Of a stretch of DNA of 31,687 bases, positions 486 to 18,237 are shown piece by piece. The stretch is from an uncultured Ruminococcus sp. (lineage in GTDB: Bacteria > Bacillota > Clostridia > Oscillospirales > Acutalibacteraceae). Position numbers and translations under genes: made by a program. The stretch covers positions 1-31,687 of the forward strand of contig CACXGH010000241.1 in the NCBI GenBank assembly GCA_902767175.1, given 5' to 3'. The notes under the pieces were generated by a model. It made no database searches and was not told where the DNA came from. It worked only from the letters and a program-made list of their open reading frames with translations. Every line of letters begins with the position of its first letter. Position 1 is the first letter of the stretch.

Positions 486-1508
486 TTATTCATCGTCATC
501 TTCAAGTTCTTCTTCATCATCTGAGAACTGCCATGTCTTGAAGCATTCGCTGATATCCTTTGCATTGGCGTTTCTGCTCCATGTTACATTTCGTTTTACA
601 ATTCTTGCGGGATTTCCTGCAGCTATACAATATTCGGGCAGAACACCCTTGAATGTCGAGCCTGCACCTATTATACATGAATCGCCTATTTCGGCTCTGT
701 TCAGAATAAATGAGCCTGCTCCTACCCAAACATGCTTGCCGAGGGTGATAGTTCCTTTGGGGTCATCATCAAGGTAAAAATTGGTACGCTTTCCTGTTTC
801 CATATCAAAGATAGCATGACCGTCACCGCTGAAAAGCAGGATATCATACGAGAACATACAATCATCACCTATGGTTATACTGTTGTTCTCCATTATTGAG
901 ATTTTGGTATTATCTCCGAAGCTTACACCATTGCCGATAGAAAGCACTCCGTTATCATGTACAAATATTCTGCTTGTACCGCCTGTCTTGCATTTCTTGC
1001 CTATATTTACCTTTGCACCTCCGCTTCCGAAAAGGCGGACCCGCATTTCTCCCTTGAAGCTGTCGTCTATTATGACAGTGGAGTTGCATACATATTTGCC
1101 AAGAACGACCTGACAGCCGCCAGAATGAATAAAATTGCCGTATTCGTCTTTATAATCCGGCGCACCGGGAGCTAATACAGTATTGCTTCTGTTTACGAAC
1201 AGGAAGTCCTTGAACTCACGGAAGCCGAGTCCCTTAAAAAGCTTCTTCAAAGCCGCAGCTGCTCTCAGATGAGGAATGATAATATAGTATTCCTTGGCTT
1301 TTCCTTTAATAGAATCAATGAAAATTCTTCCGCTGCCTGCTTTCTTCTCAACAGTAGTCAGAGAAAGCTCAGTTTCAATTCCGAATTCATTTTTTATAAG
1401 CTCTCTGAATTCATCATTTTCGCCATAAAAGACGATTTTTCTGTCATTACGGTATTTTTTTATCAGCTCAGCGGCAACCCTGTAGCTGTTGATTATTGTT
1501 TCATTCAT
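486..1508 (-). CDS. Hexapeptide-repeat (left-handed beta-helix) O-acyltransferase with extra N-terminal domain
   Basis: DCMFSYDI, GDGHAIFD, ITLGKHVWVG...IGDSCIIGAGS, AAGNPARIVK motifs. The start is moved to ATG at 1508 (MNETII) because of the AAAGGA RBS; the ORF-track start at 1580 has none. Confidence 0.85.
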   Translation of the reverse strand: MNETIINSYRVAAELIKKYRNDRKIVFYGENDEFRELIKNEFGIETELSLTTVEKKAGSGRIFIDSIKGKAKEYYIIIPHLRAAAALKKLFKGLGFREFKDFLFVNRSNTVLAPGAPDYKDEYGNFIHSGGCQVVLGKYVCNSTVIIDDSFKGEMRVRLFGSGGAKVNIGKKCKTGGTSRIFVHDNGVLSIGNGVSFGDNTKISIMENNSITIGDDCMFSYDILLFSGDGHAIFDMETGKRTNFYLDDDPKGTITLGKHVWVGAGSFILNRAEIGDSCIIGAGSTFKGVLPEYCIAAGNPARIVKRNVTWSRNANAKDISECFKTWQFSDDEEELEDDDE

Positions 1509-1580
1509 AATAATTGTCCTTTCGGCATAATCAGCAAATGCTGTACTGCAATTATACCATATACTGAACGTTGTTTTCAA

Positions 1581-2597
1581 TCAATTATCATCATTTTCAG
1601 TAAGTGCTATGTATTCCTCAGGTATATGGGTCATATCATTACGGAGAGATTCTGCAGACCATGTAGTGTCCTTTCTTATAATTTTTGCGGGATTTCCTGC
1701 TATGACGCAGTTGTTCGGGAAAGTACCCTTGACTATCGAGCCTGCACCGATAATTACAGAGGGACCTATTACAGACCTGTTGAGAATGACAGACCTCATT
1801 CCCGCCCATACATGGTCGCCTATGGAAATGATATTTTTCGGGTTGTTCCTGTTCTGCATATTGATGCGTTTTCTTTCTGCTACATCGTAGATAGCATGAC
1901 CGTCACCGCAGTATATTTTTATCTCACAAGAGAAAAGACAGTCTTTTCCTATGTTGAGGGTCATTCCTGCAAGCACCGTTACCTCTGTGTTTCTTACAAA
2001 TGTGGTTTTATCGCCTATACTAATACGTCCGTCACCGAATGCAGTAAATGTTACATTATCCTCGAAGGTGCATTTTCTGCCGATTTTTATTTCAGCTCCG
2101 CCGACTGTTTTTACAGTGATCGAAGTATCTTCTCCGAATGTGCAGCTTTCGTCAATATCAATGCTTGCATTGCACACATATTCATCAAGAACGACTCTGC
2201 ATGACGGAGAATTAACACGGTTGCCGTAGCCGTCGGTATAATCCTTTACGCCTTTGTCGAACACAATTTTATCGTGGTTATAGAAAAAGCAGTCCACAAA
2301 GTCTTCATATCCGTAGCTGTAAAGCCTGAGCTGCATATCAAGGGTCTTCTTGTGCTTGGGAACAATAATAAAATAACGGTCGTTCATGTTCTTTATGTCA
2401 AGAATATGTGTGAACTTATCGCCGGCTTTCTTCTTCACCGTAGTGATTATCATCGGATCGTCAATGCCGTATTCGGTTTTGAGAAACTGTCTGTAGGTTT
2501 CTGAGTCTCCCAGAAGAACAATGGTGCGGTCTCCTCTCAGCCTGTCTATTGTTTCAGCCATGCTTCTGTAGTGACTAAGGAATGCTTCTTTGTTCAT
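1581..2597 (-). CDS. Hexapeptide-repeat O-acyltransferase, paralog of 486-1508
   Basis: DCLFSCEI, GDGHAIYD, ISIGDHVWAG...IGPSVIIGAGS, IAGNPAKIIR motifs; ATG at 2597 preceded by AAAGGAG. Confidence 0.85.
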   Translation of the reverse strand: MNKEAFLSHYRSMAETIDRLRGDRTIVLLGDSETYRQFLKTEYGIDDPMIITTVKKKAGDKFTHILDIKNMNDRYFIIVPKHKKTLDMQLRLYSYGYEDFVDCFFYNHDKIVFDKGVKDYTDGYGNRVNSPSCRVVLDEYVCNASIDIDESCTFGEDTSITVKTVGGAEIKIGRKCTFEDNVTFTAFGDGRISIGDKTTFVRNTEVTVLAGMTLNIGKDCLFSCEIKIYCGDGHAIYDVAERKRINMQNRNNPKNIISIGDHVWAGMRSVILNRSVIGPSVIIGAGSIVKGTFPNNCVIAGNPAKIIRKDTTWSAESLRNDMTHIPEEYIALTENDDN

Positions 2598-2613
2598 AAA
2601 AATCTCCTTTTTT

Positions 2614-2650
2614 TTAAGCTGCACAGGGAATAAACCTCTGTGCAGCTTAA
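2614..2650. other. Intercistronic stem-loop (13-bp perfect stem), no U-tract on the sense strand
   Basis: TTAAGCTGCACAG-GGAATAAACCT-CTGTGCAGCTTAA; on the minus (sense) strand it is followed by AAAAAAGGAG, the RBS of the next gene. Confidence 0.75.
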
Positions 2651-2665
2651 TGTGTGTTAATAGAA

Positions 2666-5600
2666 TTATCTCTTGCAGGGGAAGTCAGTCTCGTGTGTAT
2701 CGAAGCATACCGAGTCGACAAGCTTTTTGTCTGCCTTGTTATAAACAACAATGTTCAGACCTCTGCTGTTTACAGAATGATCCTTGCCGTTTATCTGAAT
2801 AATAGCTTCGTTTCCGTTATTGTAGGTGCGGCTTGTTACATAGACATTGCTTGTGCCGAATGAAGCGTCATATACAACGGGTGTATCCTTTGCACCGAGT
2901 TTTTCAAAAATCACCTTGCCGCCATTAATAACTGCCGCATAGCTGTGACCGTGCTGTCCCTGCAGGTCTGTTCTGAGTCCGAGTGTCTTAAGCTCTGCTG
3001 CTGCGGCGGGACTGAGTGCAAGACCGGGAGTATCCTTGACGGCTATTGCGATTATATTTCCCTTGAAGTTCTTCTTGAGCGCTGTAATATAGCTGAATAT
3101 GTCAGTCTTGTCATTGAGTGTCTCTGAGGGAGCCGGAGAAGCCGATACAGTCTCCTGAGCGTCATCAGATGAAGCAGTGAACATACTTTCGGTCATTTCT
3201 GCAAGATTGTCTGTCATGCTCATGATAAGCTCCTTGAGGTTGTTTATCTTCTTATCCTGCTCTGCAGCAAGCTCACGGAGAATGTCATATTCTGACATAT
3301 AAGATGGTTTGGGAGCTGCAAGGGCATTTTTCAGCCAATTCAGACATCTTTCTCTCTCTTTGCCGAGTATCTCATAAACAGCATCGTAATCGACAGGTTT
3401 GTCAAATCTGCCTGATTCAAGATCTGAGATGTCATTTATGAGTCTGTCCTCAAGGTGGAGCATCTTTGCTATGGAATAGAATCTCGATGCTCCTCTCTTT
3501 TCGTTTACAATCGCAGCAAACGGCTTTTTCATCAGAATAGCAAAGCACATACCGTGGAAGGAGTCCGTTACAAAGAAGTCGCAGTTTGCAATGCTCTGCA
3601 GCCTTTCTTCGGTCTTGAGAGGACCTTTATACAGATCTCCGAGAGGCTCGTAATATGAGTCGGGGCGCTGGTACTCCGAGAATACCTCGCAGCCCGTGCC
3701 AAGCTTATCCATGAAATGACGGAGTATTTTTGTCTTATTCTCATCAGGGTCGAGAATATATGAGCTTACATACTTTTCTGGAAGCTTTCTTGTGCAGCGG
3801 TCGATAAGAGTCTGATAGTGTTTCATATCACACAGGAATACAGGGTCAAGTACCCAAACGGCACCGTCAACACCGTAGACATTTTTAGCCGTATCAACAC
3901 CACTGTCCTCTCTTACAGAGAAGTGGTCGAAGCGCTGCAGATAGAAAGCAAGCTCGCTGTGTATCTTAGGACTTCCGAGAGTCCTTCCGAATGAAGCCGA
4001 GTAAGCTATCTTTTTCTTTGTGTCGCTTACCCAATCGAGTGAGGTGTATTTGTCAAGTGCTGTATAGAGATTGAAGTTGAACAGCTTATCAGAGCCGACA
4101 ACGAACATATCGCACTTGTTGTTCAGCACGGCTCTCATTTCGTCTCTGTCCTTGAGAGTCTTTGCAACAGCATATTCAGGGAACAGGGGAGCAAGATGTA
4201 TCTTGTCGTATGATTCGAGAACTCTGTCGATATTCTTTGCTGTCTTGGGACGCTCGATCATAAGAGTAGCGTAGCCGAGGTCTTCAAGGATATGATAGAG
4301 TGCATAATGAGTCATTGCACCGCCAAAGTTTACGGCGTAGAAGTTTACTGCAAGACCCGTGTCAAAGTGCTTTTTATCCAGCATTTCAACGCTCTGTGAA
4401 AGGGTATGGTGCTTTAAAAGCTCCATAAATCTTGTGCGGTTGGGGCTTGCCGGATAGTGCGAACGGACGCGGTTTTTCTTTATCTCGTTCGTCTGTATTT
4501 TCATGAGCTTGCGCTTGGAAAGTCTGCGTTTTATCGAATCATAGAGCTGTCTGCCCTGAGAATTGTTTACGAATATTATAGATGTTCCGAGCTTGTCGGT
4601 CATGCCGGGTTCAAGCTCCTGTATTCCCCAGAAATCGCCTATAGAAAGGTCGCCCTGTCTTGGAAATGCACAGAACATACAGTCTGCACAGGACTTTCTG
4701 AGAGCTGTTTTATCATGGAAGGCTCTTTCAAAGGGGTCATTGTCTTTAAGACTGCCTTCATATACCTTGCCGTTGTCGAATTCTACTCTGATAAAAGTGC
4801 TGCTTCTCCAGCCGTGGCGCTCTTTATCACGGAAGATGACATTGACAGGTCTTGGCGGTTCGTCCTCAGTGCATACAGAGGGAAGACGGGATATTTCATC
4901 AAGATAACCCCTGAGCATTTTCTGTGAAGGAACACCGTGACAGAGAATATCTATTGCATAAAGATTGTCATAGTCTTTATTGAGATATGCCTTGAGACCT
5001 GCAACCTGACAGGGTGTACCTGTGAAGAGAACGGGTTTATCGGTGTCGAGCAGCTTCTTGACGTCACGGTAGAGCATATTTATATTGCTCTGTGCATATT
5101 TTGCCTTTCTCATAGGAGCAAGCTCTTCTTTAGATGATACTATCCTGTGTGCTATCTCAAGCTTATCGGTATCAAAAACAGCACCGCATACATAGCCGCC
5201 CATTTCGATTATTTTCTCTGCAGCTACAGTGAACATACCGCCTGAGGAGCTTTGAGACCTTATTTCATTCTGAGCCATTGCGGAATAAATTTCCGGCTGA
5301 AGTGAATTATCGGCATGAGTATTTACTGCCGGACAGGTATTGATACACTTCTTGCAGCCTATGCACTTATTCATGTCAACACCCGGCATGATAAAACCGT
5401 ATTCGTTTTCCTGCATCGTTATTGCATTGACGGGACATACATTTGCACAGGCAGAACAGCCGGTACATACGTTTTCGGGAACTCCTGCAACGGTTGAGGG
5501 ATAGATTCCCTCCATTTTAGTGCTTCTGATTATTTTGGACTGTTTTTTTGCGGAAGGGTCTGTTTTCTTTTCTGAGGAAATAGCGTTTTTCAGCCAATCA

Positions 5601-6712
5601 TATGAGAGCTTTGCGTTCTTGTCTATGATCTCCCATACCTTTTTATAGTCGATCTCCGTTGAAAGAATTTTTCTTATTCTCTTGTCTATGACCTCGGGCG
5701 TCATATCGTCCTCGTCAAGATTTATCATTCTGTCCTCAAGTCCTACTGTAGCAAGAAGGGTCCTGAAACGGGCGAGGCTCTGTCCTTTGTTTACGATACA
5801 TACAAAGGGTCTGCCGAATATGATAGAGAAACAAAGTCCATGGAAGGAGTCTCCTATATAGCACTGCGTATTCTCAAAATATTTCAGCCAATCCTCAACG
5901 CTCGGATTTTCAACGGCAGGAAGTCCTGTCTTATTGGTGAAGTTCTCGGGATTGTTAGGATTAGGCAGACAGTAATACTTACAGTTGAGTATATCAGCGA
6001 TTTTCAGTATAAAATCTGCCTTTTCCTTGCCGGGACCAAGAAAATAACTCGAAACATATTTTTCGTCAATTTTAACCTGTGAATTAGCTGCTAAGTCGTG
6101 ATAAACCTTTCTGTCGCAGAGGAAAACAGGATCCATGATCTTATCTGCTTTAGAATGGAATACATCATTGCAGATTTTTACTGCTTCGTCTTCACGCACA
6201 CCGATAAAGTCAAACTTTTTCATAAAATGCTCCGACCATATCCTGTCCTCCTCAGGACCGTCATATCCCGAGCCGAATGAGCTTGCCATAGCTATCTTCT
6301 TCTTTTCATCATTGACGAAATCAAGGAAGAAGAACTGACCTGCTTCTCTGCCGCATATCTGATAATGCCATACGACATCAGAGCCGACAATAAAGGTGTC
6401 GCATGTCTTGTTCAGCACCTTGTAATCCATAGAGCTGTGGTAACACTGCGTTACATTGTTGTCGCAGTATTTATAGATGAACTTGTTTGCAATAGTGTCC
6501 TTATCGGCATATCTCGGTCTCCACAGTACCTCAGGCTTATTTACCATGACAGCACTGTAGCCCATGCTCCTGACTACGTCATAAAGAGCATAATAGGTGA
6601 GAACGGATCCGTAATTGAGTCCGAACCAGAGTCCTACGATACCTACATCGTGGTGAGTATCCTCAGCCTTTACGGTCATTTCACGGCTTTCGGTTTTCAA
6701 TGTATCGCTCAT
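2666..6712 (-). CDS. Multidomain fusion: polysaccharide pyruvyltransferase-family domain + 2x[4Fe-4S] ferredoxin + FrhB/FdhB (F420 hydrogenase beta)-like domain + second pyruvyltransferase-family domain + C-terminal ILEI/PANDER-like domain
   Basis: Two copies of N(Y/F)G..(L/M)T.YALY / VGSD / KKKIA..SFG / DSFHG.CF. Ferredoxin motifs CTGCSACANVCP and CIGCKKCINTCP. FrhB-like motifs SSSGGMF, KYAQS, GTPCQVAGL, CHGVPS, RKSCADC, GDLSIGDFWG. C-terminal GHSYAAVI...RGLNIVVY...VDSVCFDTH. Confidence 0.85.
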   Translation of the reverse strand: MSDTLKTESREMTVKAEDTHHDVGIVGLWFGLNYGSVLTYYALYDVVRSMGYSAVMVNKPEVLWRPRYADKDTIANKFIYKYCDNNVTQCYHSSMDYKVLNKTCDTFIVGSDVVWHYQICGREAGQFFFLDFVNDEKKKIAMASSFGSGYDGPEEDRIWSEHFMKKFDFIGVREDEAVKICNDVFHSKADKIMDPVFLCDRKVYHDLAANSQVKIDEKYVSSYFLGPGKEKADFILKIADILNCKYYCLPNPNNPENFTNKTGLPAVENPSVEDWLKYFENTQCYIGDSFHGLCFSIIFGRPFVCIVNKGQSLARFRTLLATVGLEDRMINLDEDDMTPEVIDKRIRKILSTEIDYKKVWEIIDKNAKLSYDWLKNAISSEKKTDPSAKKQSKIIRSTKMEGIYPSTVAGVPENVCTGCSACANVCPVNAITMQENEYGFIMPGVDMNKCIGCKKCINTCPAVNTHADNSLQPEIYSAMAQNEIRSQSSSGGMFTVAAEKIIEMGGYVCGAVFDTDKLEIAHRIVSSKEELAPMRKAKYAQSNINMLYRDVKKLLDTDKPVLFTGTPCQVAGLKAYLNKDYDNLYAIDILCHGVPSQKMLRGYLDEISRLPSVCTEDEPPRPVNVIFRDKERHGWRSSTFIRVEFDNGKVYEGSLKDNDPFERAFHDKTALRKSCADCMFCAFPRQGDLSIGDFWGIQELEPGMTDKLGTSIIFVNNSQGRQLYDSIKRRLSKRKLMKIQTNEIKKNRVRSHYPASPNRTRFMELLKHHTLSQSVEMLDKKHFDTGLAVNFYAVNFGGAMTHYALYHILEDLGYATLMIERPKTAKNIDRVLESYDKIHLAPLFPEYAVAKTLKDRDEMRAVLNNKCDMFVVGSDKLFNFNLYTALDKYTSLDWVSDTKKKIAYSASFGRTLGSPKIHSELAFYLQRFDHFSVREDSGVDTAKNVYGVDGAVWVLDPVFLCDMKHYQTLIDRCTRKLPEKYVSSYILDPDENKTKILRHFMDKLGTGCEVFSEYQRPDSYYEPLGDLYKGPLKTEERLQSIANCDFFVTDSFHGMCFAILMKKPFAAIVNEKRGASRFYSIAKMLHLEDRLINDISDLESGRFDKPVDYDAVYEILGKERERCLNWLKNALAAPKPSYMSEYDILRELAAEQDKKINNLKELIMSMTDNLAEMTESMFTASSDDAQETVSASPAPSETLNDKTDIFSYITALKKNFKGNIIAIAVKDTPGLALSPAAAAELKTLGLRTDLQGQHGHSYAAVINGGKVIFEKLGAKDTPVVYDASFGTSNVYVTSRTYNNGNEAIIQINGKDHSVNSRGLNIVVYNKADKKLVDSVCFDTHETDFPCKR

Positions 6713-6746
6713 TAGTACAACTCCTTCATTATATTATGGCTTGATA

Positions 6747-8564
6747 TCAGATATCAAGATACTTCTTCCAGAAGTCAAGCTCCATAAGCTCTTTTCCTCT
6801 GTTGAGATAAGCCTTAACGGTCTTTTTATACTTCCACCTTGATTTGAGCTGTATCTTCCACAGCATAAACATAAGGCGCATTGTCTCCTTTATGCTCTTT
6901 TCGGTAATAAATGCCTTTCTGCTGCTGTAGTCATAATTGAGTACCTTCTTAACACGGTAGAAGTTAACAGGTCTTGCAGTATATGTGGGTGCTACGATAG
7001 GCATTTCCTTGTCATCATTCTTCTTTGCAGGGAGCATAAGTCCGTTTGCTGTGAGTTTCCTCCATATCCTTGTCCTTTTGGGTGGCTCCGGAGTACGGCA
7101 GGCTTTTTCGTATGACGGATAGCTGAAAGGTATAGGCAGGTCGTTTATGTCCTGCATCTTATATCCTCTGCCCATAACATTCTTGTGGAGTGCTTCACCG
7201 TCCTGAGCCATGAGCCAGTCTATTCCGTTATAGAAGTCATTAACGCCGTTCATGAGAAGCTCGGCATTTTTATATCTGTAGAAAACTATCTCACGCTTGA
7301 CCTGAGATTCAAGATCCTTTACGAATTCTTTTCTCTTATAATTAAGAGCGTGGATAGAGTTGTCTAAAAGTCTGTTTCTGAAAATATAATAATAGAGTGA
7401 TGAAGAATATTTGTTTTCAAACGGTTCGTGCCATACACAGATACCGTTCATAAGAATAATATGCTTGAGGTTTCTCAGCCCGTATTCGACATCATCGCCT
7501 CTTATGAAGATAGGCAGGGGGAGGTTGTCCTCCTGTATTACAGATGCGGGGAACGCACAGTACCACCATGCATTGAATTCTGTCTTTTCCTCGAACTCAT
7601 TATATACACAGCTTTCCGTATCCAAAAGATTAAGACCTGATTTGTGGGAAATGAGATAACCCTTGTTCCATCTTGCGCCTGCTTCAGTCTGAATAAACTG
7701 ATTATCAAGTCTGAGCATAGCTCCGCCGACAAATGCGTCCTTGTACTGTTCCTTCAGGAGTGAAAGTATCACGAAGGTGCGGTATACTGATTCGGGGTTT
7801 ATGATAACATCGTCGTCCATAACGAGAACGTGGGTAATGCCCCTTTCCTCACGGCACTTCATTATTTCTATCATGCCTCTTGTGAATCCGCCTGCGCCGC
7901 CTGTGTTCTTGTTGAGGAACACATGGATCTTATCGTTAAGTACGATCTTTGACTGATCAAGTGTTTTAGCGTTGTCAGAAATAAATATCTCAAGCTTATC
8001 CTTCATTTCGGATTTAGGGTCGTTCAGGAAGTTGTCATAAAGCTCCCTTACATTCTTTTCGACAAAGACCTCACGCTTGAAGGTGCATATATCAAGAGCG
8101 ATCTTTACAGGTCTGATATTTTCCTCTTCAACATCACCCTCATAGTATCCGCCGTAAAACTCTCCTTTTTCGCTCAGACAGCATATCTGGAAACAGAACA
8201 TACCGTTATTTGATTCGGTATCAAAAGGGAAGGAGTATGCTCCGATAATATTAGGCTTGCCGAAGGTCTCTTCAAGAAGGAACTTGGTATTTACTCCGTC
8301 AAGGCTTTTTTCCTTTCTCATAAGAGTAATTCTGAACTTGCCTTTTACACGGACATGGATATTGATTTTCTTAACATTAGTATATTTAAACCATTTTTCG
8401 GCGGAACAGCCGTTGAAATAAGTATCGAACTCAACGAGTGCATCCTCGGTCAATTCGAGATGATCCATATCCCATGTGAATTTGACCGAGCCGTGTCTGC
8501 GGAAATACATCTGTTCTTCGGTGCATATTCCGGTTCTTGGGAAAAGAAGGGTTTGAAGTTTCAT
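6747..8564 (-). CDS. GT2 glycosyltransferase, galactofuranosyltransferase GlfT2-like (N-terminal beta-sandwich + GT-A)
   Basis: NTGGAGGFTRG, LVMDDD, NAWWYCAF, PLPIFIRGDDVEYGLR and GICVWHEPF motifs typical of the GlfT2 family. Confidence 0.8.
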   Translation of the reverse strand: MKLQTLLFPRTGICTEEQMYFRRHGSVKFTWDMDHLELTEDALVEFDTYFNGCSAEKWFKYTNVKKINIHVRVKGKFRITLMRKEKSLDGVNTKFLLEETFGKPNIIGAYSFPFDTESNNGMFCFQICCLSEKGEFYGGYYEGDVEEENIRPVKIALDICTFKREVFVEKNVRELYDNFLNDPKSEMKDKLEIFISDNAKTLDQSKIVLNDKIHVFLNKNTGGAGGFTRGMIEIMKCREERGITHVLVMDDDVIINPESVYRTFVILSLLKEQYKDAFVGGAMLRLDNQFIQTEAGARWNKGYLISHKSGLNLLDTESCVYNEFEEKTEFNAWWYCAFPASVIQEDNLPLPIFIRGDDVEYGLRNLKHIILMNGICVWHEPFENKYSSSLYYYIFRNRLLDNSIHALNYKRKEFVKDLESQVKREIVFYRYKNAELLMNGVNDFYNGIDWLMAQDGEALHKNVMGRGYKMQDINDLPIPFSYPSYEKACRTPEPPKRTRIWRKLTANGLMLPAKKNDDKEMPIVAPTYTARPVNFYRVKKVLNYDYSSRKAFITEKSIKETMRLMFMLWKIQLKSRWKYKKTVKAYLNRGKELMELDFWKKYLDI

Positions 8565-8618
8565 ATTATTTTACACTCCTAAATCATATACTTCTGACTT
8601 TATAACCTCTGACATCTT

Positions 8619-8647
8619 ATTGTAACATTTAAGCATAATTAAATCAA
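8619..8647 (-). promoter_or_regulatory. sigma-A-type promoter of the glycan-modification operon
   Basis: TTGATT-N17-TACAAT with extended TG. Confidence 0.65.
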
Positions 8648-8744
8648 GTTTTTGCACAAAAAACAGAAAGGGCAATTATTAGAAAAATAGCATATTTCAG
8701 GTGTTTTTTTGTGGCTTTGTACTATTTGATGTATTGTAAATATT

Positions 8745-10076
8745 TCACTTTACACAGCATATGGTCTGCTGTCCGTATGCCCTGAGGAGCTTTATTGTGT
8801 ATTTGTCTATCTGCTCTCCCGGCATTATCAGCGGTACTCCGGGCGGACATGGACATGAGCTGTCGGCAGATATTCTTCCATCAGCTTTGTCAAGCTCTAC
8901 AGTCTCCGTTTCTCCGAGCATTGCTTGTCTCGGACTTATTACATATTCAGGCAGTGATATTTTGTCCGGTCTGTCAGAAACGGGCTTGCCGTTCAGTGAT
9001 GAAATAAGTTTTTCAAGTCTCTGAAAATCCTGTTCGCTGTTGAATGGCGTACAAATCATGACTGCGTTTCTCCCGTCACAGAATTCAGGCTCTATTCCGA
9101 AGCCGTGCATAAGCTCCATTTGTTCTTTTTCGGAAACACCTGCACAGAAGGTGTTTATACAAACCCTCAGCGGGTCGCACAGTCCTTCCGGCTGAATTAG
9201 TCCGTGAACCTCTGCAAGAGCTTTTATCTCTGCAATTCTTTTTTCAAGTCTTCTGTATTCATTAATACCGCCGTTTTCAAGATAATCCCTGCACAGATCT
9301 ATAGATGCCATGATAGGATAAGAGGGGCTTGTCGAGCCGAAAAGCGCCATCGCCTGCTTTCCTTCATCTGCAAGCACGGCATTTCCGATGTTCAGTACGG
9401 CTCCGCCCGTCAGTACGGGAAGAGTTTTATGCAGAGAGCAGGCACTCATATCTGCACCGAGTGCGACAGGGTGAAGATTATGCTCCATAAAGGCAAGATG
9501 CGAGCCGTGTGCGTTGTCTACGAGCAGAAGTACACCTTTTTCATGGCATACCTCTGCGATCTTATGTATGTCGGATATTTCACCGTAATAATCGGGGCTT
9601 GTCAGATAGCAGGCTGAAATATCGGGATTTTCCGCTATAGCCCTGCTTATATCGTCGGGGTCGGCTCTGCCTGTAAATGATCCGCTTTCCGAGTGCGGAA
9701 GAACCCATACAGGCTCAATGCCGAGCAGTGCTGCCGCATTGACAGCACTGCGGTGGATATTTCGTGCGAACAGTATTTTTCTGCCCCTTTTCGATGCGAT
9801 TCTCAGCATTGCCTGAATAGCTAAGGTACATCCGCCGGATGAAATAAGCGTTCGCTTTGTTCCGAAAAGCTTTGAAAGGCAATCCTCGGCTTTAAGAATA
9901 GCTCCGTTCGCTTCATAAAGAGCGTCTGTATCAGGCAGTTCCGTCAGGTCAAGACTCATCAGTCCGTCAAGAAAATTACCCGAGCATTTATGCCCGGGTG
10001 TATGGAACGGCGACAGCCCTTTCCGTTTGTGTTCTTTAAGCTGTGTATACAGCGGTGTATAAGACATCTTTGTCAC
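8745..10076 (-). CDS. Orn/Lys/Arg decarboxylase family PLP enzyme
   Basis: FHTPGHK, DLTEL...D.L, RNIHRSA, TSPDYYG, VDNAHGSH, SLHKTLP (PLP lysine), STSPSYPIMASID, PCPPGVPLIMPGE. The start is GTG at 10076 (overlapping the upstream stop) or ATG at 10067 with a GGAG RBS. Confidence 0.9.
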   Translation of the reverse strand: MTKMSYTPLYTQLKEHKRKGLSPFHTPGHKCSGNFLDGLMSLDLTELPDTDALYEANGAILKAEDCLSKLFGTKRTLISSGGCTLAIQAMLRIASKRGRKILFARNIHRSAVNAAALLGIEPVWVLPHSESGSFTGRADPDDISRAIAENPDISACYLTSPDYYGEISDIHKIAEVCHEKGVLLLVDNAHGSHLAFMEHNLHPVALGADMSACSLHKTLPVLTGGAVLNIGNAVLADEGKQAMALFGSTSPSYPIMASIDLCRDYLENGGINEYRRLEKRIAEIKALAEVHGLIQPEGLCDPLRVCINTFCAGVSEKEQMELMHGFGIEPEFCDGRNAVMICTPFNSEQDFQRLEKLISSLNGKPVSDRPDKISLPEYVISPRQAMLGETETVELDKADGRISADSSCPCPPGVPLIMPGEQIDKYTIKLLRAYGQQTICCVK

Positions 10077-11329
10077 TCCGTTTGTTTTGTTGATTGTTCT
10101 TTCATATGCTCTTTGTTTTTATTGCGGACACTCATGAGATGTATCCTTAGCTTTCTCAGATACATGATATAGATGAAGATATTTACTGCGGAAAGAACAG
10201 ATATCGGTACAAAATAGCAATCCGACAGAAAATGAATATAGGTTATAAGCGTTACTGTGTACATCATGCATAAAAGATATATCGTTTTTCTGTCGATAAA
10301 TGCGATCAACAGGGCGAGTATCTCATAAACAAATCCGTAGCGCTCATGCATACTCGGAAGGAAAAGCACACAGGTGTATGAAAGAATGAATGCCATTAAT
10401 ATTATGCTCTTAAGGTCTGTATGGACTTTCTTTTTCAGGCAGAGCAGCATTATTGTTCCGAGAGCTGCTGCAGTGATGATAATTGCAGGATATTTCAGTA
10501 TATTATAAAGCTGTTCGGAGCTTATTACCTCTTTTCCTGCAAAATATGAAGCAGCATGAACGGTGTCGGCTGCTAATCCCCATACGGAGGGATAATTCAG
10601 TGCGACCGATTTATATATTGAGGTCTGAGAAAAATAAATTGTAAATACATCTGTAATACTTCTGCCGGAAATTATTCCCGGAAGGCTCAGAACGACCATC
10701 ACGACAGGAATGAAAAGCAGATAAAGTAAATGAGGTTTTTTCCTTATGAACAGAACAAGCACTATAACGGGCAGAAGGAATACTGCCTGCAGCTTGAAGG
10801 TGAAGGCGACACCGTATACTATCAGAGCCGCCATATCTTTCTTCTTTGACAGAAGAAAGAGGGAAGCAAGCCCGAAGAACGTATAAATTGCATCGCACTG
10901 AGCCCACCATGAGGAGTTAAGTATTACGATAGGGGAGAGAAAGACAAGCCCGAATGCTGTAAAAGCACGGGCATGTCTGTTTTTATCGGAAAGCCGGAAG
11001 ACGATATATCCGCTCATGACGGCTAAAAAAACATCGAATATACATGAAAACAGCTTATAGGCATAAAGTGCTTTTATCGGTATATATGTGAAGAAGGCTA
11101 TTATTGTCTGATAGAGAATATTGTAGTCCCCGACCTGCGTACCGAGATTGGAAAAACCGCCTGCTGATTTAATTTCATCAAACCAAGGAACAAGAAACAT
11201 ATCGGAATCGCCTGATGTCATATCACGCAGTGCAATTCTGATTATTGTGCCTGTTATAAAGAATAATATTCCTGCAATGAGAAGCTTCTTATTGAAAGAT
11301 TGTGCCGCAGTATTTTTTTCTTCCTTCAT
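10073..11329 (-). CDS. Polytopic GT-C-fold membrane glycosyltransferase (GT87/mannosyltransferase-like)
   Basis: About ten hydrophobic segments; GDYNILY, YKLFSCIFD, SWWAQCDAIY, KLQAVF and PSMHERY motifs. Confidence 0.65.
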   Translation of the reverse strand: MKEEKNTAAQSFNKKLLIAGILFFITGTIIRIALRDMTSGDSDMFLVPWFDEIKSAGGFSNLGTQVGDYNILYQTIIAFFTYIPIKALYAYKLFSCIFDVFLAVMSGYIVFRLSDKNRHARAFTAFGLVFLSPIVILNSSWWAQCDAIYTFFGLASLFLLSKKKDMAALIVYGVAFTFKLQAVFLLPVIVLVLFIRKKPHLLYLLFIPVVMVVLSLPGIISGRSITDVFTIYFSQTSIYKSVALNYPSVWGLAADTVHAASYFAGKEVISSEQLYNILKYPAIIITAAALGTIMLLCLKKKVHTDLKSIILMAFILSYTCVLFLPSMHERYGFVYEILALLIAFIDRKTIYLLCMMYTVTLITYIHFLSDCYFVPISVLSAVNIFIYIMYLRKLRIHLMSVRNKNKEHMKEQSTKQTE

Positions 11330-12905: not shown

Positions 12906-14219
12906 TTATTTTTCCGACAGAATTATCCTTCTCATGTCGGACGCAAGATACAGTGAGCCGAAAACGACAACGGCATTTTTGTCACTGCCATTCATGGCAA
13001 GCGTTCTTGCTTTTCTATATGCTTTTCTAAGGTCGTTTTCGTACCCGACAGGCACTCCGAATTCAGAAACCATTGTTGACAGATCCTCTGCACTCATGGC
13101 TCTGGGATTGTCGGGCGTTACGGTTATTACTTCGTCAAACAGAGGAATAAGCATTGACAGAGCGGTTCTGATATCCTTATCGGCAAGCATTCCCGTTACA
13201 GCGACCTTGTAATACCCGTCAAGGTGTGATTTTATCAGCGAAGAAAGCGCTTTTGCTCCGCCGGGATTATGCGCTCCGTCAAGCAGTACAACAGGGTTGC
13301 TTTTCAGAAGCTCGGCTCTCGCAGGAAAAACTGTCTCTGCAAGACCGTTTATTATGGCATTGTCGGAAATATTCAGGCCTTTTTCTATAAGTGCGGCAAC
13401 AGTATATAGAGCTGCTGCTGCATTTTTGAGCTGATGATCGCCTATCAGCGGTATAGAAAGCTCTTTTTCCTCACCATTAAACAGAATGTCATTTCTGAAA
13501 GTAAACACAGAGCCTTCAAGTCCCGATGAAATGCACTTTACGGAAGAAATATCAGCAACAATAAGCTTATTATTTCTTTCGTCAGCGGCATTTTTGACGA
13601 CTTCATAAACACCGTCCGGCTGTTCACCATAAAGAACGGTAATGCCGTCGGGTTTGATTATACCGCATTTTTCAAAAGCTATTTTCTCACAGGTGTCTCC
13701 TAAAATTGCCGTATGGTCAAGTGATATCGACATTATTACGGAGGAAAGGGGAGTGCTGATGATATTTGTAGCGTCAAAACGGCCGCCGAGTCCTGTCTCA
13801 AGAACAACGACATCGCATTTTTCCCTTTCGTACCATTTAAGAGCGGCGGCAAAAACAAGCTCAAATTCGGTGATGATTTTACCTTCATTTTTCATTTCAA
13901 GAACAACTCTCCATATTTGTTCTATAATATCGGCAAGGTCCTGTTCAGGTATCATTTCACCGTTTATCTGAAATCTCTCACGGAATTCAAGTACAAAGGG
14001 GGAGATAAAAAGCCCTGTTTTATAGCCTGCCGCCCTGAGAATACTTGACAGATAAGCGCAAACCGAGCCTTTTCCGTTAGTTCCTGCAACATGAACAAAC
14101 CGAAGTTTTTTATCGGGTGAGCCTATTCTTTCTACAAGCTCTTGTACTCTTTCAAGCCCGGGCTTGCTCCCGAACACAAGCAGCGAATTTATCTTTTCTA
14201 CAGCTTCATTATATGTCAT
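12906..14219 (-). CDS. folC: Bifunctional folylpolyglutamate synthase/dihydrofolate synthase
   Basis: HVAGTNGKGS, FISP...ERFQING, VLETGLGGRFDATN, ISLDHTAILG, IAFEKCGIIK, LLDGAHNP, FGSLYL. Confidence 0.95.
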   Translation of the reverse strand: MTYNEAVEKINSLLVFGSKPGLERVQELVERIGSPDKKLRFVHVAGTNGKGSVCAYLSSILRAAGYKTGLFISPFVLEFRERFQINGEMIPEQDLADIIEQIWRVVLEMKNEGKIITEFELVFAAALKWYEREKCDVVVLETGLGGRFDATNIISTPLSSVIMSISLDHTAILGDTCEKIAFEKCGIIKPDGITVLYGEQPDGVYEVVKNAADERNNKLIVADISSVKCISSGLEGSVFTFRNDILFNGEEKELSIPLIGDHQLKNAAAALYTVAALIEKGLNISDNAIINGLAETVFPARAELLKSNPVVLLDGAHNPGGAKALSSLIKSHLDGYYKVAVTGMLADKDIRTALSMLIPLFDEVITVTPDNPRAMSAEDLSTMVSEFGVPVGYENDLRKAYRKARTLAMNGSDKNAVVVFGSLYLASDMRRIILSEK

Positions 14220-14298: not shown

Positions 14299-14928
14299 TT
14301 AATTCTGTTCTTTGCGCTGCTTCTGAGCTTTGATTACCTTAAGTCGGGAGAATTCTTCTCTTTCCTTCTCTTCAAGAGCGTCAGAGATAAACTTCACCGT
14401 CTCCTCGAACTTGGGAATCATAATGTTCTTTAATGCATTGGCACGCTTCTGCGTTTTCTTTATCGCATCTGCAAGTCTGTATACACTGTTCTCGATCTCC
14501 GCTAAGTGGGCTGTTAGCCTCTTAACCTCACTAAAGCATACATAAGCTTCGTCAAATGCGGAGTTTGTAACTCCGAGACCGTAAAACAGATTGTTCTCAT
14601 GCTCGCTTTCGTCTATCGTTACAATAGGTATTTCAACGCCCATGACGCTTCTGTAGCTTAACTGCAGAGTATCGTCCTCGGGAACTGATTTCGCTATCGC
14701 ATCAATATAACCCATGGTGATATTTGCCCTCTGCAGTGCAAGATATGCCTTGCTGTAGGTGATATCTATTTTTGTTTGTATCTCTGCTGCTTTATCAATA
14801 AGCGTCATCATCTCTCTTACGAGAATATTGCGCTTTTTGTCAAGCAGCTCGTAGCCTGTCCGGGCAAGCGAAAGAGACTTTTTTGATGTCATAAGATTGC
14901 CCTTTGTAGGTACAGCCTGTACTGCCAT
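14299..14928 (-). CDS. ntpD: V/A-type ATPase subunit D
   Basis: PTKGNL, LARTGYELLDKKR, VMGVEIP, KTQKRANAL, DALEEKEREEFSRLK. Confidence 0.95.
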   Translation of the reverse strand: MAVQAVPTKGNLMTSKKSLSLARTGYELLDKKRNILVREMMTLIDKAAEIQTKIDITYSKAYLALQRANITMGYIDAIAKSVPEDDTLQLSYRSVMGVEIPIVTIDESEHENNLFYGLGVTNSAFDEAYVCFSEVKRLTAHLAEIENSVYRLADAIKKTQKRANALKNIMIPKFEETVKFISDALEEKEREEFSRLKVIKAQKQRKEQN

Positions 14929-14948
14929 TTATTATCACCCCATTGTCA

Positions 14949-16397
14949 TTATGCGTCATCGTCTGCGTCTTTTGCCGAAGAGCCGTCATCGGCAAAGGTA
15001 TGAAAGCTGAGATTGTCCGTGTCCTCAATATAGTATTTGTCAAGAAGTGTATCGTCTACACGGTCAAGCTCTGCTCTCGGAAGTGTTGAGAGCAGCTTCC
15101 AGCCAAGGTCAAGGCTCTGTTCGATAGTTCTGTTCTCATGGAATCCCTGATTTACAAAATACTGCTCGAAAAGCTTTCCGAACTGCATATACTTCTTGTC
15201 AACAGGAGACAGTTCCTCTTCACCGATAACCGATGCGAGAGAACGGGCGTCCTGTACACGGGCGTATGAAGCAAAAAGCTGGTTTGCAAGTGCCTGATGG
15301 TCGGCTCTTGTGTAGCCTTCACCGATACCGTCTTTCATAAGTCTAGAGAGAGAGGGAAGGACCGATACCGGAGGATAGAAGCCTGAGCCTTCAAGCTGTC
15401 TGTCAAGAACTATCTGACCTTCTGTGATATAGCCTGTAAGGTCAGGTACAGGGTGGGTAATATCATCGTTGGGCATTGTGAGTATCGGTATCTGTGTTAC
15501 CGAACCTTTGCTGCCCTTTATCATTCCTGCACGCTCATATAATGAGGCAAGGTCAGAGTAGAGATAGCCGGGGAAGCCCTTTCTTCCCGGAATTTCTCCC
15601 TTTGAGGAGGAGAACTCACGGAGAGCCTCTGCGTACGATGTCATGTCTGTCATAATTACGAGAACGTGCATATTGCATTCAAAAGCGAGATACTCCGCTG
15701 CAGTGAGTGCGCATCTCGGAGTAAGTGTTCTTTCAATGATAGGATCATTTGCAAGGTTAAGGAACATTACAACTCGTGAAAGAACGCCGCTCTCGTCAAA
15801 GCTTCTGCGGAAATAATCAGCGACATCGTTCTTAACGCCCATTGCGGCAAATACTATACCGAATTTATTGTCTCCGTCAGTATCTGATATCTTAGCCTGT
15901 CTGACTATCTGTACTGCAAGCTCATTGTGCTTCATACCTGAGCCTGAGAAGATAGGGAGCTTCTGACCTCTGATAAGAGTCATAAGAGTATCTATTGTGG
16001 AAATACCTGTATTTATATAGTTTCTCGGATAAACACGGGAAACAGGATTCATCGGTGTGCCGTTGACATTTGCTCTTTTAACGGGGTATATCTCACCAAG
16101 ACCGTCAATAGGTCTGCCGGCTCCGCTGAATACTCTTCCCATTATTTCAGGAGAGAGCGGAAGCTCCATTGGTCTTGCCTTTAGTCTTGTTCTTGTATTG
16201 TCGAGGGAAATTGACTTTGTTCCTTCGAAAACCTGAACGACAATGCGCTTGCCGTCTATCTGAACAATTCTTCCGTGACGGTAAGTTCCGTTTTCAAGTC
16301 TGATATCTACCATTTCCTCGTATGAGGCATTATCAACATTATCAAGCACTATAAGAGAACCGTTTATCTCTTTTACACCGACATAATCGAGAATCAT
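14949..16397 (-). CDS. ntpB: V/A-type ATPase subunit B
   Basis: [72 protein letters not shown]. Confidence 0.97.
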
Positions 16398-16479
16398 TTA
16401 ATTCACATCCTTGTATTCCGAAAGGGTGACTGCTCACCCTTGCAGTCGGTTATTGTCAGACTGCGGAGTCTTTAAAGGC

Positions 16480-18237
16480 TCAGGCAGTCAGTTGGGCGAG
16501 AGCATTGTCGATGTCTGAAATAAGCTCATCGAAAAGCTCGGGCTTGTTATTGGGAATGTCGTACTTCATCTTTGCAAGGCGCTCAAACAGTCCTAACTCC
16601 ATAATGCGTGAGATCGGGATAGCGGCGGCTATTATCTTTTTGGCTTTAGAATAAAGGTGAAGTATGGCCTTCATCATGAGCTTCTGCTTCTCAAGCGGAA
16701 CGAAGGTATCGTCTGCATGGAAGGCATTCTGCTGCAGGAAGCCAACACGGACAGCCTTTGCTATCTCTATTACAAGCTTCTGGTCATCGGGCAGAACATC
16801 TGAGCCGATGAGCTTGACTATTTCCATAAGGGAGCTTTCCTCGTGGAGAATAGCCGTAATTTTATTCCTGTATTTTATGAAATCATCACCGAGATTTTCC
16901 CTGAACCACGGGTCAAGGTCGGTGAAGTATTCGCTGTAGCTGTCCATCCAATTTATCGCAGGATAATGTCTTGCATAGGCAAGTGACTTATCAAGAGCCC
17001 AGAAGCAGCGAGTAAAACGCTTTGTGTTCTGTGTAACAGGCTCAGAGAAGTCTGAACCCTGAGGAGATACAGCTCCGATAATAGTTACGGAGCCTTCGCT
17101 GCCGCAGAGGGTATCAACACGGCCTGCTCTTTCATAGAATTCAGAAAGTCTTGACGGCAGGTAAGCAGGGAAGCCTTCTTCTGCAGGCATTTCCTCGAGT
17201 CGTCCGGAGATCTCTCTCAATGCCTCAGCCCATCTTGATGTAGAGTCAGCCATTATTGCTACATGGTAGCCCATGTCACGGTAATACTCTGCAAGGGTAA
17301 GACCTGTATAAATAGATGCCTCACGGGCAGCAACAGGCATATTTGAGGTATTTGCGATAAGCACTGTTCTGTCCGTCATAGGTCTGCCTGATTTCGGGTC
17401 GATAAGCTCGGAAAACTCATCAAGTACCTGACTCATCTCATTTCCTCTCTCACCGCAGCCTACATAGACTATGATATCCGCATCGCACCATTTAGCAAGC
17501 TGGTGCTGCGTCATTGTCTTTCCTGTGCCGAAGCCTCCGGGTATTGCAGCAGTTCCGCCCTTTGAGATAGGGAACATCGTGTCAATGACACGCTGACCCG
17601 TGATAAGCGGTACAGTTGCAGGAAGTCTCTGCTTACAGGGGCGGGCGCTTCTTATCGGCCATTTCTGACAAAGTGTAAGCTCATGCTCATTGCCGCTGTC
17701 GTCCTTTATAGTGACAATGGTATCATTGAGCTTATATTTTCCGTTTGCGGCAGCTTTAATAACCGTTCCGCTGAGCAGCGGAGGTACTATAAAGCGGTGC
17801 TCGATAATAGCTGTTTCAGGGCAGACTGCATATATCTGACCGCCCGTCAGCTTATCGCCCTTTTTGACCTTTACGGTGACATCCCATTCCTTATCAAGGT
17901 CGAGGGAGGATACTGCAGCACCTCTTGATATGAAGGAGCCGCTTGTTTCCTCGATAGCCTTAAGGGGACGCTCAATTCCGTCGAATATATTGTCGATAAT
18001 ACCCGGACCTAACAGAACGTTCATAGGTGCGCCCGTTCCGTAAATCGGGTCACCGGGTTTAAGACCTGTTGTTTCCTCATAGACCTGAACGGTCGTAAAT
18101 TTGTCGTTTATGCCGATTATCTCTCCTACAAGACGGGCTTCACCGACATAGACCATTTCCATCATGGAAAAGTTTCTTGTATTTCTGACGGTAACAACAG
18201 GGCCGTTTATTCCGTAAATAACATCATTTGTTGCCAT
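16480..18237 (-). CDS. ntpA: V/A-type ATPase subunit A (catalytic)
   Basis: P-loop [58 protein letters not shown]; no intein. Confidence 0.97.

Follow-up and report, generated by a model that had tools for sequence, protein, structure and literature searches.

We propose that a 1348-aa fusion protein encoded by an uncultured Ruminococcus sp. is probably a self-contained cytoplasmic enzyme that makes lactyl ethers (1-carboxyethyl groups) on a glycopolymer of the wall or cell surface, as judged from sequence comparisons. Each of its two PS_pyruv_trans domains would use PEP to place an enolpyruvyl (carboxyvinyl) group on one sugar hydroxyl with release of phosphate; the intermediate would not close to a ketal, and the FrhB-like flavin/[4Fe-4S] domain would reduce its C=C bond to a lactyl ether, taking electrons from reduced ferredoxin via the protein's own 2x[4Fe-4S] domain. 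One reductase would serve both transferase domains, leading to lactylation of two different positions or residues, and a C-terminal ILEI-type domain would hold the glycan. A MurA/MurB-like route had been suggested in an earlier note on this DNA, and comparisons with E. coli O146, Klebsiella K22, E. coli O149 and MurB-paralogue partners make it the best-supported reading. To our knowledge, the lactyl-ether reaction is known from genetics and has never been shown with purified enzymes.

The ORF list and translation gave an ATG-to-stop ORF of 1348 aa that occupies exactly positions 2666-6712, minus strand, of the window, the whole 31,687-nucleotide stretch of DNA analysed. The modules of its product follow in the order PT1, 2x[4Fe-4S], FrhB-like, PT2, linker and ILEI-like domain:

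2666..6712, minus strand: fusion gene, 1348 aa (ORF list, translation, Pfam, 20 further same-architecture homologues)
5558..6655, minus strand: PT1, first PS_pyruv_trans domain, aa ~20-385, GSDVVW (Pfam PF04230; family-conserved residues)
5318..5488, minus strand: 2x[4Fe-4S] ferredoxin-like domain, aa ~409-465, CxxCxxCxxxCP twice (Fer4_7 and related Pfam models)
4508..5287, minus strand: FrhB-like flavin/[4Fe-4S] domain, aa ~476-735 (PF04422 and PF04432, invariant columns, AF2 model)
3302..4360, minus strand: PT2, second PS_pyruv_trans domain, aa ~785-1137, GSDKLF (Pfam; genome search; orthology to the ~915-aa family)
3104..3301, minus strand: linker, aa ~1138-1203, partly helical, then low-complexity and Ser/Ala/Glu-rich (translation)
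2669..3103, minus strand: ILEI/PANDER-type domain, aa 1204-1348 (PF15711, AF2, structural matches)

The earlier note had described two PS_pyruv_trans domains flanking a 2x[4Fe-4S] and an FrhB-like domain in one chain, and had proposed domain mapping as a check; Pfam agreed with this layout and found all the named domains, plus the C-terminal ILEI/PANDER domain. A Kyte-Doolittle scan found no membrane-like segment, the top 19-residue mean (1.59) lying within the conserved DSFHG core, in keeping with the lack of a signal peptide recorded before. The fusion product is a cytoplasmic protein.

The source genome is a fragmented metagenome-type assembly (247 contigs, 87.6% complete), which is the one ground for suspecting that faulty assembly or a frameshift has run separate genes together into the long ORF. 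However, the identical protein was found on three contigs, and 20 further full-length homologues of 1309-1351 aa, 56-85% identical and with the same four-module order, were drawn from four independent sources (NCBI, ENA, JGI and Logan assemblies), including some whose contigs are 217 kb and 60 kb long. With the whole architecture common to 21 independently assembled proteins, the fusion can be taken as genuine, and the chance of an artefact is negligible. Moreover, ~90 proteins of a shorter FrhB-PT2-ILEI form (~915 aa) share the gene neighbourhood, more than 1000 fused homologues exist, and (FrhB-PT)x2 and PT-PT-FrhB-PT chains also occur.

PF04230 scored 222.9 bits (cut-off 25.3) on the whole protein, matching twice with E 1e-65; the best stretch covers aa 33-309 and the second copy ~aa 785-1137. 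In a PF04230 search of the whole genome the domains scored 118.9 and 116.6 bits, with the PT2 match at positions 3503-4330. PT1 and PT2 are paralogues over their full length (31% identity, E 2e-59), and both keep GSD, SFG, VRE, DPVF, DSFHG and two Arg. Among the family-conserved positions only the residue after GSD departs, the usual Q being replaced by V in PT1 (motif GSDVVW at aa 110) and by K in PT2 (motif GSDKLF at aa 873). These deviations from GSDQxW, pointed out in the earlier note, are real, but they fail as function markers: since GSDQIW stands in the O146 enzyme as well as in the contig C228 paralogue that is fused to an FrhB-like domain, the variants are, by this comparison, clade markers. 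Both domains look reductase-coupled because close relatives of each occur in FrhB fusions of their own. PT1 shares 53-55% identity with the transferase part of three 760-aa FrhB-PT fusions (P0100, P0107 and P0117), its closest relatives outside the full-length clade, and PT2 has its orthologue in the transferase of the ~915-aa FrhB-PT-ILEI proteins.

These relationships also bear on a mixed function, in which one transferase domain, most likely PT2, would feed the reductase to give a lactyl ether and the other would make a pyruvate ketal. Within the 915-aa family PT2 is the ancestral partner, and because that FrhB-PT2-ILEI form holds the same locus in relatives, PT1 is a later addition; the limited identity between PT1 and PT2 fits such a division of labour as well. 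Contig C26 has a stand-alone PT1-like gene with GSDVVW that lacks an FrhB-like neighbour, and this too agrees with a mixed function. On the other hand, the closest outside relatives of PT1 are themselves FrhB-fused, and the comparison of family residues found no pattern that splits ketal-forming from ether-forming PF04230 members. We consider a mixed function unlikely.

The reductase part retains 12/12 cluster cysteines and the SSSGG motif. Pfam placed an Fer4 dicluster at aa 413-462, FrhB_FdhB_N (PF04422) at aa 476-544 (29 bits, cut-off 22) and FrhB_FdhB_C (PF04432) at aa 560-730 (63.7 bits, cut-off 23.3). Across 35 homologues, the eight cysteines of the ferredoxin domain were invariant, as were SSSGG 488-492 and Cys 568, 591, 675 and 678 of the FrhB-like domain. 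All significant PDB matches (20/20) of the AF2 model of the FrhB-like domain (pLDDT 92.6) were FrhB-family subunits, including the ferredoxin-dependent HCAR, and FrhB, FdhB, Fsr and HCAR were matched at E 1e-10 to 1e-17. The domain is a predicted flavin/[4Fe-4S] reductase of the FrhB/FdhB fold family. Membership of this fold family is not expected to make it an F420 enzyme: no F420 biosynthesis gene scored above cut-off in the 87.6% complete genome (the top scores were 21.7 bits for CofE, with a cut-off of 25, and 52 bits for CofH, with a cut-off of 374), as anticipated for the lineage in the earlier note. That note had left the electron donor as ferredoxin or NAD(P)H; the ferredoxin-like domain points to ferredoxin, and NAD(P)H gained no support. 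A precedent is BciB, an FrhB-family FAD/Fe-S enzyme for which ferredoxin is the reductant of a vinyl group (PMC4836224). BciB and HCAR, from organisms without F420, share with the domain the FrhB fold and, as predicted for it, FAD and Fe-S clusters and a ferredoxin donor, and BciB acts on a vinyl C=C bond. In contrast, their substrates are tetrapyrroles, they have neither such an N-terminal 2x[4Fe-4S] domain nor a fused transferase, and the similarity is at fold level (~17% identity).

Whether the two families act together, as had been argued from the fusion itself, can be judged from 150 Clostridia genomes. Since 29 of the 42 FrhB-like genes in this sample were fused to a PF04230 gene or lay within 6 kb of one (8/42 had no transferase gene nearby), the pairing is, by gene position, non-random. 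We further compared reference loci that carry a transferase and a flavoreductase, namely E. coli O146, K. quasipneumoniae, V. parahaemolyticus and Proteus terrae. The gene cluster for O146 contains a nitroreductase-family gene, wzx and a PF04230 transferase; lactyl-glucose is part of this antigen, which is absent from the list of pyruvylated antigens (PMC7685785). In E. coli O149, whose antigen bears a pyruvate ketal, the cluster encodes the transferase but lacks a reductase. Klebsiella K22, K37 and K66 have transferase genes yet unpyruvylated capsules, and exactly K22 and K37 also carry a nitroreductase gene, and K66 a 'coenzyme F420 hydrogenase' gene (PMC4616057). According to a title cited in PMC3857182, K22 contains 4-O-(1-carboxyethyl)-GlcA. 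A related case is O164, which differs from O124 in having no lactyl group owing to a wfeP frameshift (PMC7685785). The Klebsiella pairs are wclZ with HG127 in K22 and K37, and wcqF with HG203 in K66. The K66 capsule is, we presume, of lactyl-rhamnose structure. The enterobacterial correlations checked directly concern nitroreductase-type and MurB-type partners, and the FrhB-type link leans on K66 and O124. Co-occurrence with characterised glycans supports the view that lactyl ethers accompany a PF04230 transferase paired with a flavoreductase, as in E. coli O146 and Klebsiella K22/K37, and that ketals accompany a transferase alone, as in O149.

The O146, K22/K37 and K66 systems, and putatively that of E. 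coli O124/Shigella wfeP, resemble the fusion in combining a flavoreductase with a PF04230-family transferase at a glycan locus, with 1-carboxyethyl ethers and not ketals as the known products, and K66 also shares its FrhB-type partner. Unlike the fusion, these enterobacterial pairs are separate genes, one transferase per reductase, in Gram-negative Wzx/Wzy-type clusters, whereas the fusion joins two transferases, a reductase and a lectin-like domain beside a GlfT2-like gene in a Clostridia-type genome; sequence identity with the O146 transferase is only ~23%. No biochemical study of the enterobacterial lactyl-ether gene pairs was found in the searchable literature.

The same comparisons weigh on the view that both domains are ordinary ketal pyruvyltransferases, with the FrhB-like module performing another sugar redox step or an electron-dependent control of activity. 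The biochemically studied PF04230 enzymes all form ketals, a review names no lactyl-forming member (PMC6801904), and FrhB-family domains serve many different redox reactions. PT1 and PT2 belong by profile score and conserved residues to the same family as the ketal enzymes CsaB, WcaK, Pvg1p, GumL, ExoV and that of E. coli O149; however, the latter work without a reductase and yield cyclic ketals, whereas PT1 and PT2 are permanently tied to one. Clusters with a transferase plus a flavoreductase go with ketal-free, lactyl-ether glycans, the ketal-type O149 cluster is free of any reductase, and three unrelated flavoreductase families, one of them MurB-like, fill the partner position. An all-ketal function is quite unlikely on this evidence.

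The MurB-like partner was found beside the V. parahaemolyticus and Proteus terrae transferases, which are 47-48% identical to the O146 enzyme and lie in the same gene order as in O146 (reductase-flippase-transferase-GT). This MurB paralogue has an FAD_binding_4 and a sub-threshold MurB_C match (NF010480, E 5.8e-45). With a MurB paralogue in the partner position of a related transferase, the MurA/MurB parallel goes beyond analogy. Like MurA/MurB, the fusion would form an enolpyruvyl ether with PEP and then reduce it with a flavin to the lactyl ether. They differ in that MurA is of the EPSP-synthase family and MurB consists of FAD_binding_4/MurB_C with NADPH as donor, whereas the fusion has PF04230 and FrhB-like folds with three Fe-S clusters; and the acceptor of MurA/MurB is UDP-GlcNAc, whereas that of the fusion is probably a polymer or lipid-linked glycan. 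Pfam found no EPSP-synthase-fold or FAD_binding_4/MurB_C match in the fusion protein, and the sole EPSP_synthase match in the window is aroA (25442-26713). The fusion may work like MurA/MurB, as a member of neither family.

Some relatives of the O146 transferase (Aeromonas and Pseudoalteromonas loci) pair with a TPP enzyme and a dehydrogenase instead of a flavoreductase, and PF04230 genes are found paired with or fused to enzymes of this kind on contig C26 of this genome too. Therefore, the partner gene does not always stand for a simple reduction, and PF04230 chemistry may be wider than assumed, which would suit domains that use a donor other than PEP, with the reductase finishing a non-lactyl product. 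We regard this as improbable: the family has no known alternative donor, the Arg, His and Asp residues conserved in the family are intact in PT1 and PT2, and a MurB paralogue as partner is a specific pointer to reduction of an enolpyruvyl group.

The neighbouring genes suggest an acceptor for the proposed lactyl-ether synthase:

6747..8564, minus strand: GlfT2-like glycosyltransferase, 605 aa (Pfam Glft2_N; weak Glycos_transf_2 below cut-off)
8745..10076, minus strand: PLP-dependent Orn/Lys/Arg-decarboxylase-family gene, 443 aa (Pfam OKR_DC_1)
1581..2624, minus strand: hexapeptide-repeat O-acetyltransferase-like gene, 347 aa, downstream (Pfam Hexapep; NCBIfam WbbJ/WcaF-like below cut-off)
486..1580, minus strand: second hexapeptide-repeat O-acetyltransferase-like gene, 364 aa (Pfam Hexapep; NCBIfam WbbJ/WcaF-like below cut-off)

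The GlfT2-like gene lies upstream, 35 bp from the fusion gene, and directly precedes it in four other loci (L007, L009, L011 and L012), where the decarboxylase-family gene also keeps its position despite differing outer flanks. A glf gene was found in this genome and within locus L009. From this arrangement the GlfT2-like transferase likely makes the acceptor, probably a lipid-linked galactofuranose-containing polymer, which the two downstream acetyltransferases would probably decorate further.

The ILEI/PANDER-type domain had been overlooked in the earlier note. It follows a linker whose length varies among homologues by BLAST coordinates. PF15711 matched aa 1204-1348 at 33.7 bits (cut-off 27) and was also matched by 55/55 aligned homologue tails. 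Using its AF2 model (pLDDT 96.2), VIA-align matched the TMEM2 ectodomain (Z 7.1), the POMGnT1 stem (Z 4.8), FAM3A (Z 4.2) and FAM3B (Z 4.0), and Foldseek found nothing in the PDB, so model-based support for the ILEI fold is modest. The same type of domain is also found on TagF-like, GP-PDE, sulfatase and SGNH enzymes. ILEI/PANDER (FAM3) proteins and the POMGnT1 stem, which binds carbohydrate, resemble it through the PF15711 score and as its best fold matches; unlike them, the bacterial domain is cytoplasmic and occurs on wall-polymer enzymes, and the Z values are modest (7.1, 4.8). The domain is likely glycan-binding.

In its most specific form, which we put forward only tentatively and hold to be less likely than not, the FrhB-type reductase would serve two transferase sites in the one chain, which would lactylate a GlfT2-made galactofuranan at two positions, on the cytoplasmic side and during polymer assembly, with the ILEI-type domain as the polymer clamp. 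If true, this would be an independently arisen MurA/MurB-like route, driven by ferredoxin and acting on a polymer instead of a nucleotide sugar. PF04230 enzymes would then fall into ketal formers and ether formers, and the partner reductase would decide between these two classes of product.

We found that the fusion is encoded by a single uninterrupted reading frame, which lies among the following genes.

Features of the window around the fusion gene
486-1580 (-), second hexapeptide acetyltransferase-like gene
1581-2624 (-), first hexapeptide acetyltransferase-like gene downstream of the fusion
2666-6712 (-), fusion ORF, uninterrupted, 1348 codons
6747-8564 (-), GlfT2-like transferase
8745-10076 (-), PLP-dependent Orn/Lys/Arg-decarboxylase-family gene
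10073-11329 (-), GT87-like membrane protein

Pfam analysis placed two PS_pyruv_trans (PF04230) stretches, a 4Fe-4S dicluster (Fer, aa 413-462) and both FrhB/FdhB halves in the protein, all above cut-off. The two transferases, PT1 (aa ~20-385) and PT2 (aa ~785-1137), are full-length paralogues with 31% identity; the quoted motifs were located in PT1 (GSDVVW, aa 110) and PT2 (GSDKLF, aa 873), and no membrane-like segment was seen in the whole 1348-aa chain. The domain fusion described in the earlier note was thus borne out, with the ORF, the Pfam matches and the quoted motifs all present, and it was extended by a C-terminal domain of 145 residues that the first reading had overlooked. An assembly error joining separate genes, which that note had raised, was rejected: the identical protein was found on three contigs, and the PT1-Fer/FrhB-PT2-tail order recurs in 20 proteins (1309-1351 aa long, 56-85% identical) that come from four sources (NCBI, ENA, JGI and Logan), two of them encoded on contigs of 217 kb and 60 kb.

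With the whole protein as query, more than 1000 significant fused homologues were returned, and with the reductase part only, 3724 homologues, mostly stand-alone proteins of ~385 aa. The retrieved proteins were sorted by their modules.

Module census
Fer/FrhB-PT2-tail, ~915 aa, n=90
Full four-module form, n=21
Fer/FrhB-PT, 760 aa, transferase 53-55% identical to the fusion's PT1, n=3
(Fer/FrhB-PT)x2 chain, n=1
PT-epimerase-PT-Fer/FrhB-PT chains, n=2
Fer/FrhB-tail without transferase, n=2

The 915-aa form sits in the same neighbourhood as the fusion of the window (PLP-dependent decarboxylase-family gene, GlfT2-like glycosyltransferase, fusion), indicating that the 1348-aa form is that locus with PT1 added at the N-terminus. 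Since relatives of PT1 and of PT2 each occur in reductase fusions of their own, both look like reductase-coupled transferases. A second fusion, collinear with aa 20-727 at 32% identity, was identified on another contig of the same genome (C228).

Features of the C228 locus
5275-7947 (-), 890-aa transferase-Fer/FrhB fusion
8081-11194 (-), 1037-aa GT2-GT1 double glycosyltransferase, adjoining the 890-aa fusion

For the C-terminal tail of the 890-aa protein (~200 residues), Pfam gave no match, and the tail does not resemble the ILEI-type one. For proteins of this fusion family, database names such as 'F420 hydrogenase beta subunit' or 'pyruvyl transferase' are probably misleading.

The mechanism proposed in the earlier note is that the transferases would add enolpyruvyl groups and the FrhB-like domain would reduce them to lactyl (1-carboxyethyl) ethers, in a MurA/MurB-like manner. 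In the reductase module, the eight Cys of the two ferredoxin-type clusters, C568, C591, C675, C678 and an SSSGG motif were invariant across 35 homologues. The AlphaFold model of aa 405-775 reached a pLDDT of 92.6 and a pTM of 0.92, and all 20 of its significant PDB matches were FrhB-family flavo-iron-sulfur subunits, among them F420-reducing Fmd and CODH subunits, Fsr, FrhB, FdhB and plant HCAR. A PDB sequence search with the whole fusion found no solved relative of the transferase domains. FrhB-family enzymes occur in organisms without F420; as had been anticipated for this lineage, CofE and CofH were not found above cut-off in this genome, which is 87.6% complete. BciB, a FAD-containing Fe-S protein, uses ferredoxin electrons to convert a vinyl to an ethyl group (PMC4836224), and so directly exemplifies how the FrhB fold can reduce a C=C bond.

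All 55 aligned C-terminal pieces matched ILEI (PF15711) in Pfam, and the fusion's own tail scored above the cut-off. The tail was modelled with a pLDDT of 96.2; Foldseek against the PDB returned nothing (best E-value 0.3), and the domain was placed solely by the exhaustive aligner and the Pfam profile. Exhaustive alignment gave modest scores, with the TMEM2 ectodomain at Z 7.1, the carbohydrate-binding stem of POMGnT1 at Z 4.8, and FAM3A and FAM3B near the top. In the AlphaFold DB, the tail domain (TM up to 0.94) was attached to TagF-like glycerophosphotransferase, glycerophosphodiesterase, sulfatase and SGNH esterases, and the enzymes bearing it build or trim wall polymers. We read the tail as a putative glycan-holding module, which would make a nucleotide sugar less likely as the acceptor than a polymer or a lipid-linked glycan. 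Moreover, two retrieved Fer/FrhB-like reductases of 521-540 aa (P0125 and P0126) carry the ILEI-type tail without a transferase domain, indicating that the tail accompanies the reductase, too, and not the transferase alone.

Lactyl ethers have been known for decades from O antigens, capsules and exopolysaccharides. Our literature search found no characterised enzyme for them outside MurNAc, and no paper showing the proposed chemistry. In the RefSeq annotation of E. coli ATCC 8739, the O146 cluster holds a nitroreductase-family gene, wzx and a PF04230 transferase; O146 is listed with lactyl-substituted glucose, and pyruvate ketals are listed only for O112ac, O149 and O156 (PMC7685785). As a control, the O149 cluster of E. 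coli UMNK88 was inspected, and the transferase was present and the reductase absent between galF and gnd. The Klebsiella K66 capsule, for which the literature search found no published structure, presumably contains lactyl-rhamnose. A Klebsiella survey reported pyruvyl-transferase genes in K8, K22, K37 and K66 despite their unpyruvylated capsules (PMC4616057), and its supplement gives transferase plus nitroreductase for K22 and K37, and transferase plus 'coenzyme F420 hydrogenase' only for K66. According to a title cited in PMC3857182, K22 contains 4-O-[(S)-1-carboxyethyl]-glucuronic acid. According to PMC7685785, a frameshift in wfeP sets O164 apart from O124, and the lactyl group is absent in O164. 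The protein search from the O146 transferase returned nothing named WfeP, and a search for distant DNA matches to the O146 module gave 17 genomes, all of them O146.

The neighbourhoods of five homologues of the O146 transferase, retrieved by the protein search, were read. In K. quasipneumoniae, the nitroreductase-flippase-transferase-GT1 order was repeated. In V. parahaemolyticus and Proteus terrae, the O146 gene order was kept, with a 362-aa MurB paralogue at the reductase position.

MurB paralogues in surface-glycan loci
V. parahaemolyticus (L014), 2421-3509
Proteus terrae (L015), 2415-3503

Each of them lies two genes ahead of a PF04230 transferase sharing 47-48% identity with that of E. 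coli O146. Their products carry FAD_binding_4, match MurB_C below its threshold (22.7 bits, cut-off 27), and matched the MurB model NF010480 at E 5.8e-45, below the equivalog cut-off. To our knowledge, MurB has one known reaction, in which an enolpyruvyl ether is reduced to the lactyl ether. With nitroreductase-like, MurB-like and FrhB-like proteins all found at the partner position, three unrelated flavoreductase families appear in one role beside PF04230, which is what one would expect if the product leaving the transferase is an enolpyruvyl ether in need of reduction. However, the partners of the Aeromonas and Pseudoalteromonas homologues were a TPP-dependent enzyme and a short-chain dehydrogenase, indicating that the partner chemistry of the PF04230 family is not uniform.

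Contig C26 of the Ruminococcus genome carries a 916-aa fusion of a pyruvyl-transferase domain with a thiamine-diphosphate enzyme (4481-7231, (-)), followed by a Zn alcohol dehydrogenase (3445-4455, (-)), a stand-alone transferase (2290-3399, (-)) and a second GlfT2-like gene (398-2320, (-)). In the Aeromonas caviae and Pseudoalteromonas loci just mentioned (L016, 3236-6098, and L017, 2210-6092), separate TPP-enzyme and dehydrogenase genes directly precede the PF04230 transferases. This recurrent module suggests further chemistry on transferred pyruvate-derived groups.

To see whether the pairing exceeds chance, 150 Clostridia genomes were searched for FrhB_C and PF04230, with the present genome left out of the counts. 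About a quarter of the genomes carried an FrhB-like gene. Among the 42 strong FrhB_C matches, 29 were fused to a PF04230 match or lay within 6 kb of one on the same contig, against a chance proximity of ~1% when a genome of 2-4 Mb holds one to three transferase genes. One further match lay 12.5 kb from PF04230, four had transferases without listed coordinates, and eight, some on short contigs, had no PF04230 nearby. Most PF04230 genes of the sample lacked an FrhB neighbour, so that two transferase classes exist.

The deviations from GSDQxW follow clades. GSDVVW (Q-to-V) was kept throughout the PT1 clade. GSDKLF (Q-to-K) was restricted to the PT2 domains of the full-length clade (1309-1351 aa), one member of which, P0021, has GSEKMF; the 915-aa orthologues retain the Q as GSDQLF. 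The deviations pointed out in the earlier note are therefore real but clade-bound, and were rejected as a functional marker, since both the FrhB-fused C228 paralogue and the lactyl-linked O146 enzyme have GSDQIW. No signature separating ether-formers from ketal-formers was found in the sequences compared.

The GlfT2-like gene lies 35 bp upstream of the fusion and holds the same position in four other loci, one of which (L009) has glf, DUF4422 and another GT2 downstream; the present genome carries glf on contig C200. That the acceptor is a polymer containing galactofuranose is a reasonable guess, and no more. In five loci with differing outer flanks, the PLP-dependent decarboxylase-family gene immediately precedes the pair formed by the GlfT2-like gene and the fusion, and it may be part of the module (e.g. 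for amine supply) or merely syntenic.

PLP-dependent decarboxylase-family gene in loci of relatives
L007, 6648-7988
L009, 6641-7966
L011, 4637-5968
L012, 4431-5894

A FolC-like gene of the window (12906-14219) has a Mur-ligase fold and was rejected as a module part, as it scores as FolC proper (365 bits, cut-off 163). Between the fusion stop and the first acetyltransferase start, and overlapping that start, a near-perfect palindromic hairpin with a 15-bp stem (2614-2650) could be a terminator or attenuator between these genes. No ORF of at least 100 aa lies on either strand in positions 1-485, the ~480 bp beyond the last acetyltransferase gene, and the glycan gene string appears to end there. 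A complete V/A-type ATPase operon (14299-22715, (-); subunits C/AC39, I, K/c, F, E, A, B and D) and, upstream of it, pheA, aroC and aroA (23246-26713, (-)) are ordinary housekeeping genes unrelated to the fusion.

Taken together, the lactyl-ether mechanism is the best-supported explanation of the fusion, and we consider it moderately likely, on a basis made up wholly of comparative genomics and of genetics published for other bacteria. In its general form the idea is not new and is already implicit in the enterobacterial O-antigen literature. Particular to this work are the two transferases around one reductase with a lectin-like tail, the evidence placing both transferases in reductase-coupled clades, and the MurB-paralogue observation, which ties the lactyl-ether model to known chemistry. 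One soluble polypeptide with every catalytic part is also a convenient object for a first biochemical proof. The fusion family is large: its reductase homologues number more than 1000 in fused and more than 3700 in stand-alone form. If confirmed, the mechanism would mean that a pyruvyl-transferase fold is able to halt the reaction at the enolpyruvyl intermediate, and would make the acidic lactyl decorations of gut and rumen bacterial surfaces predictable from sequence.
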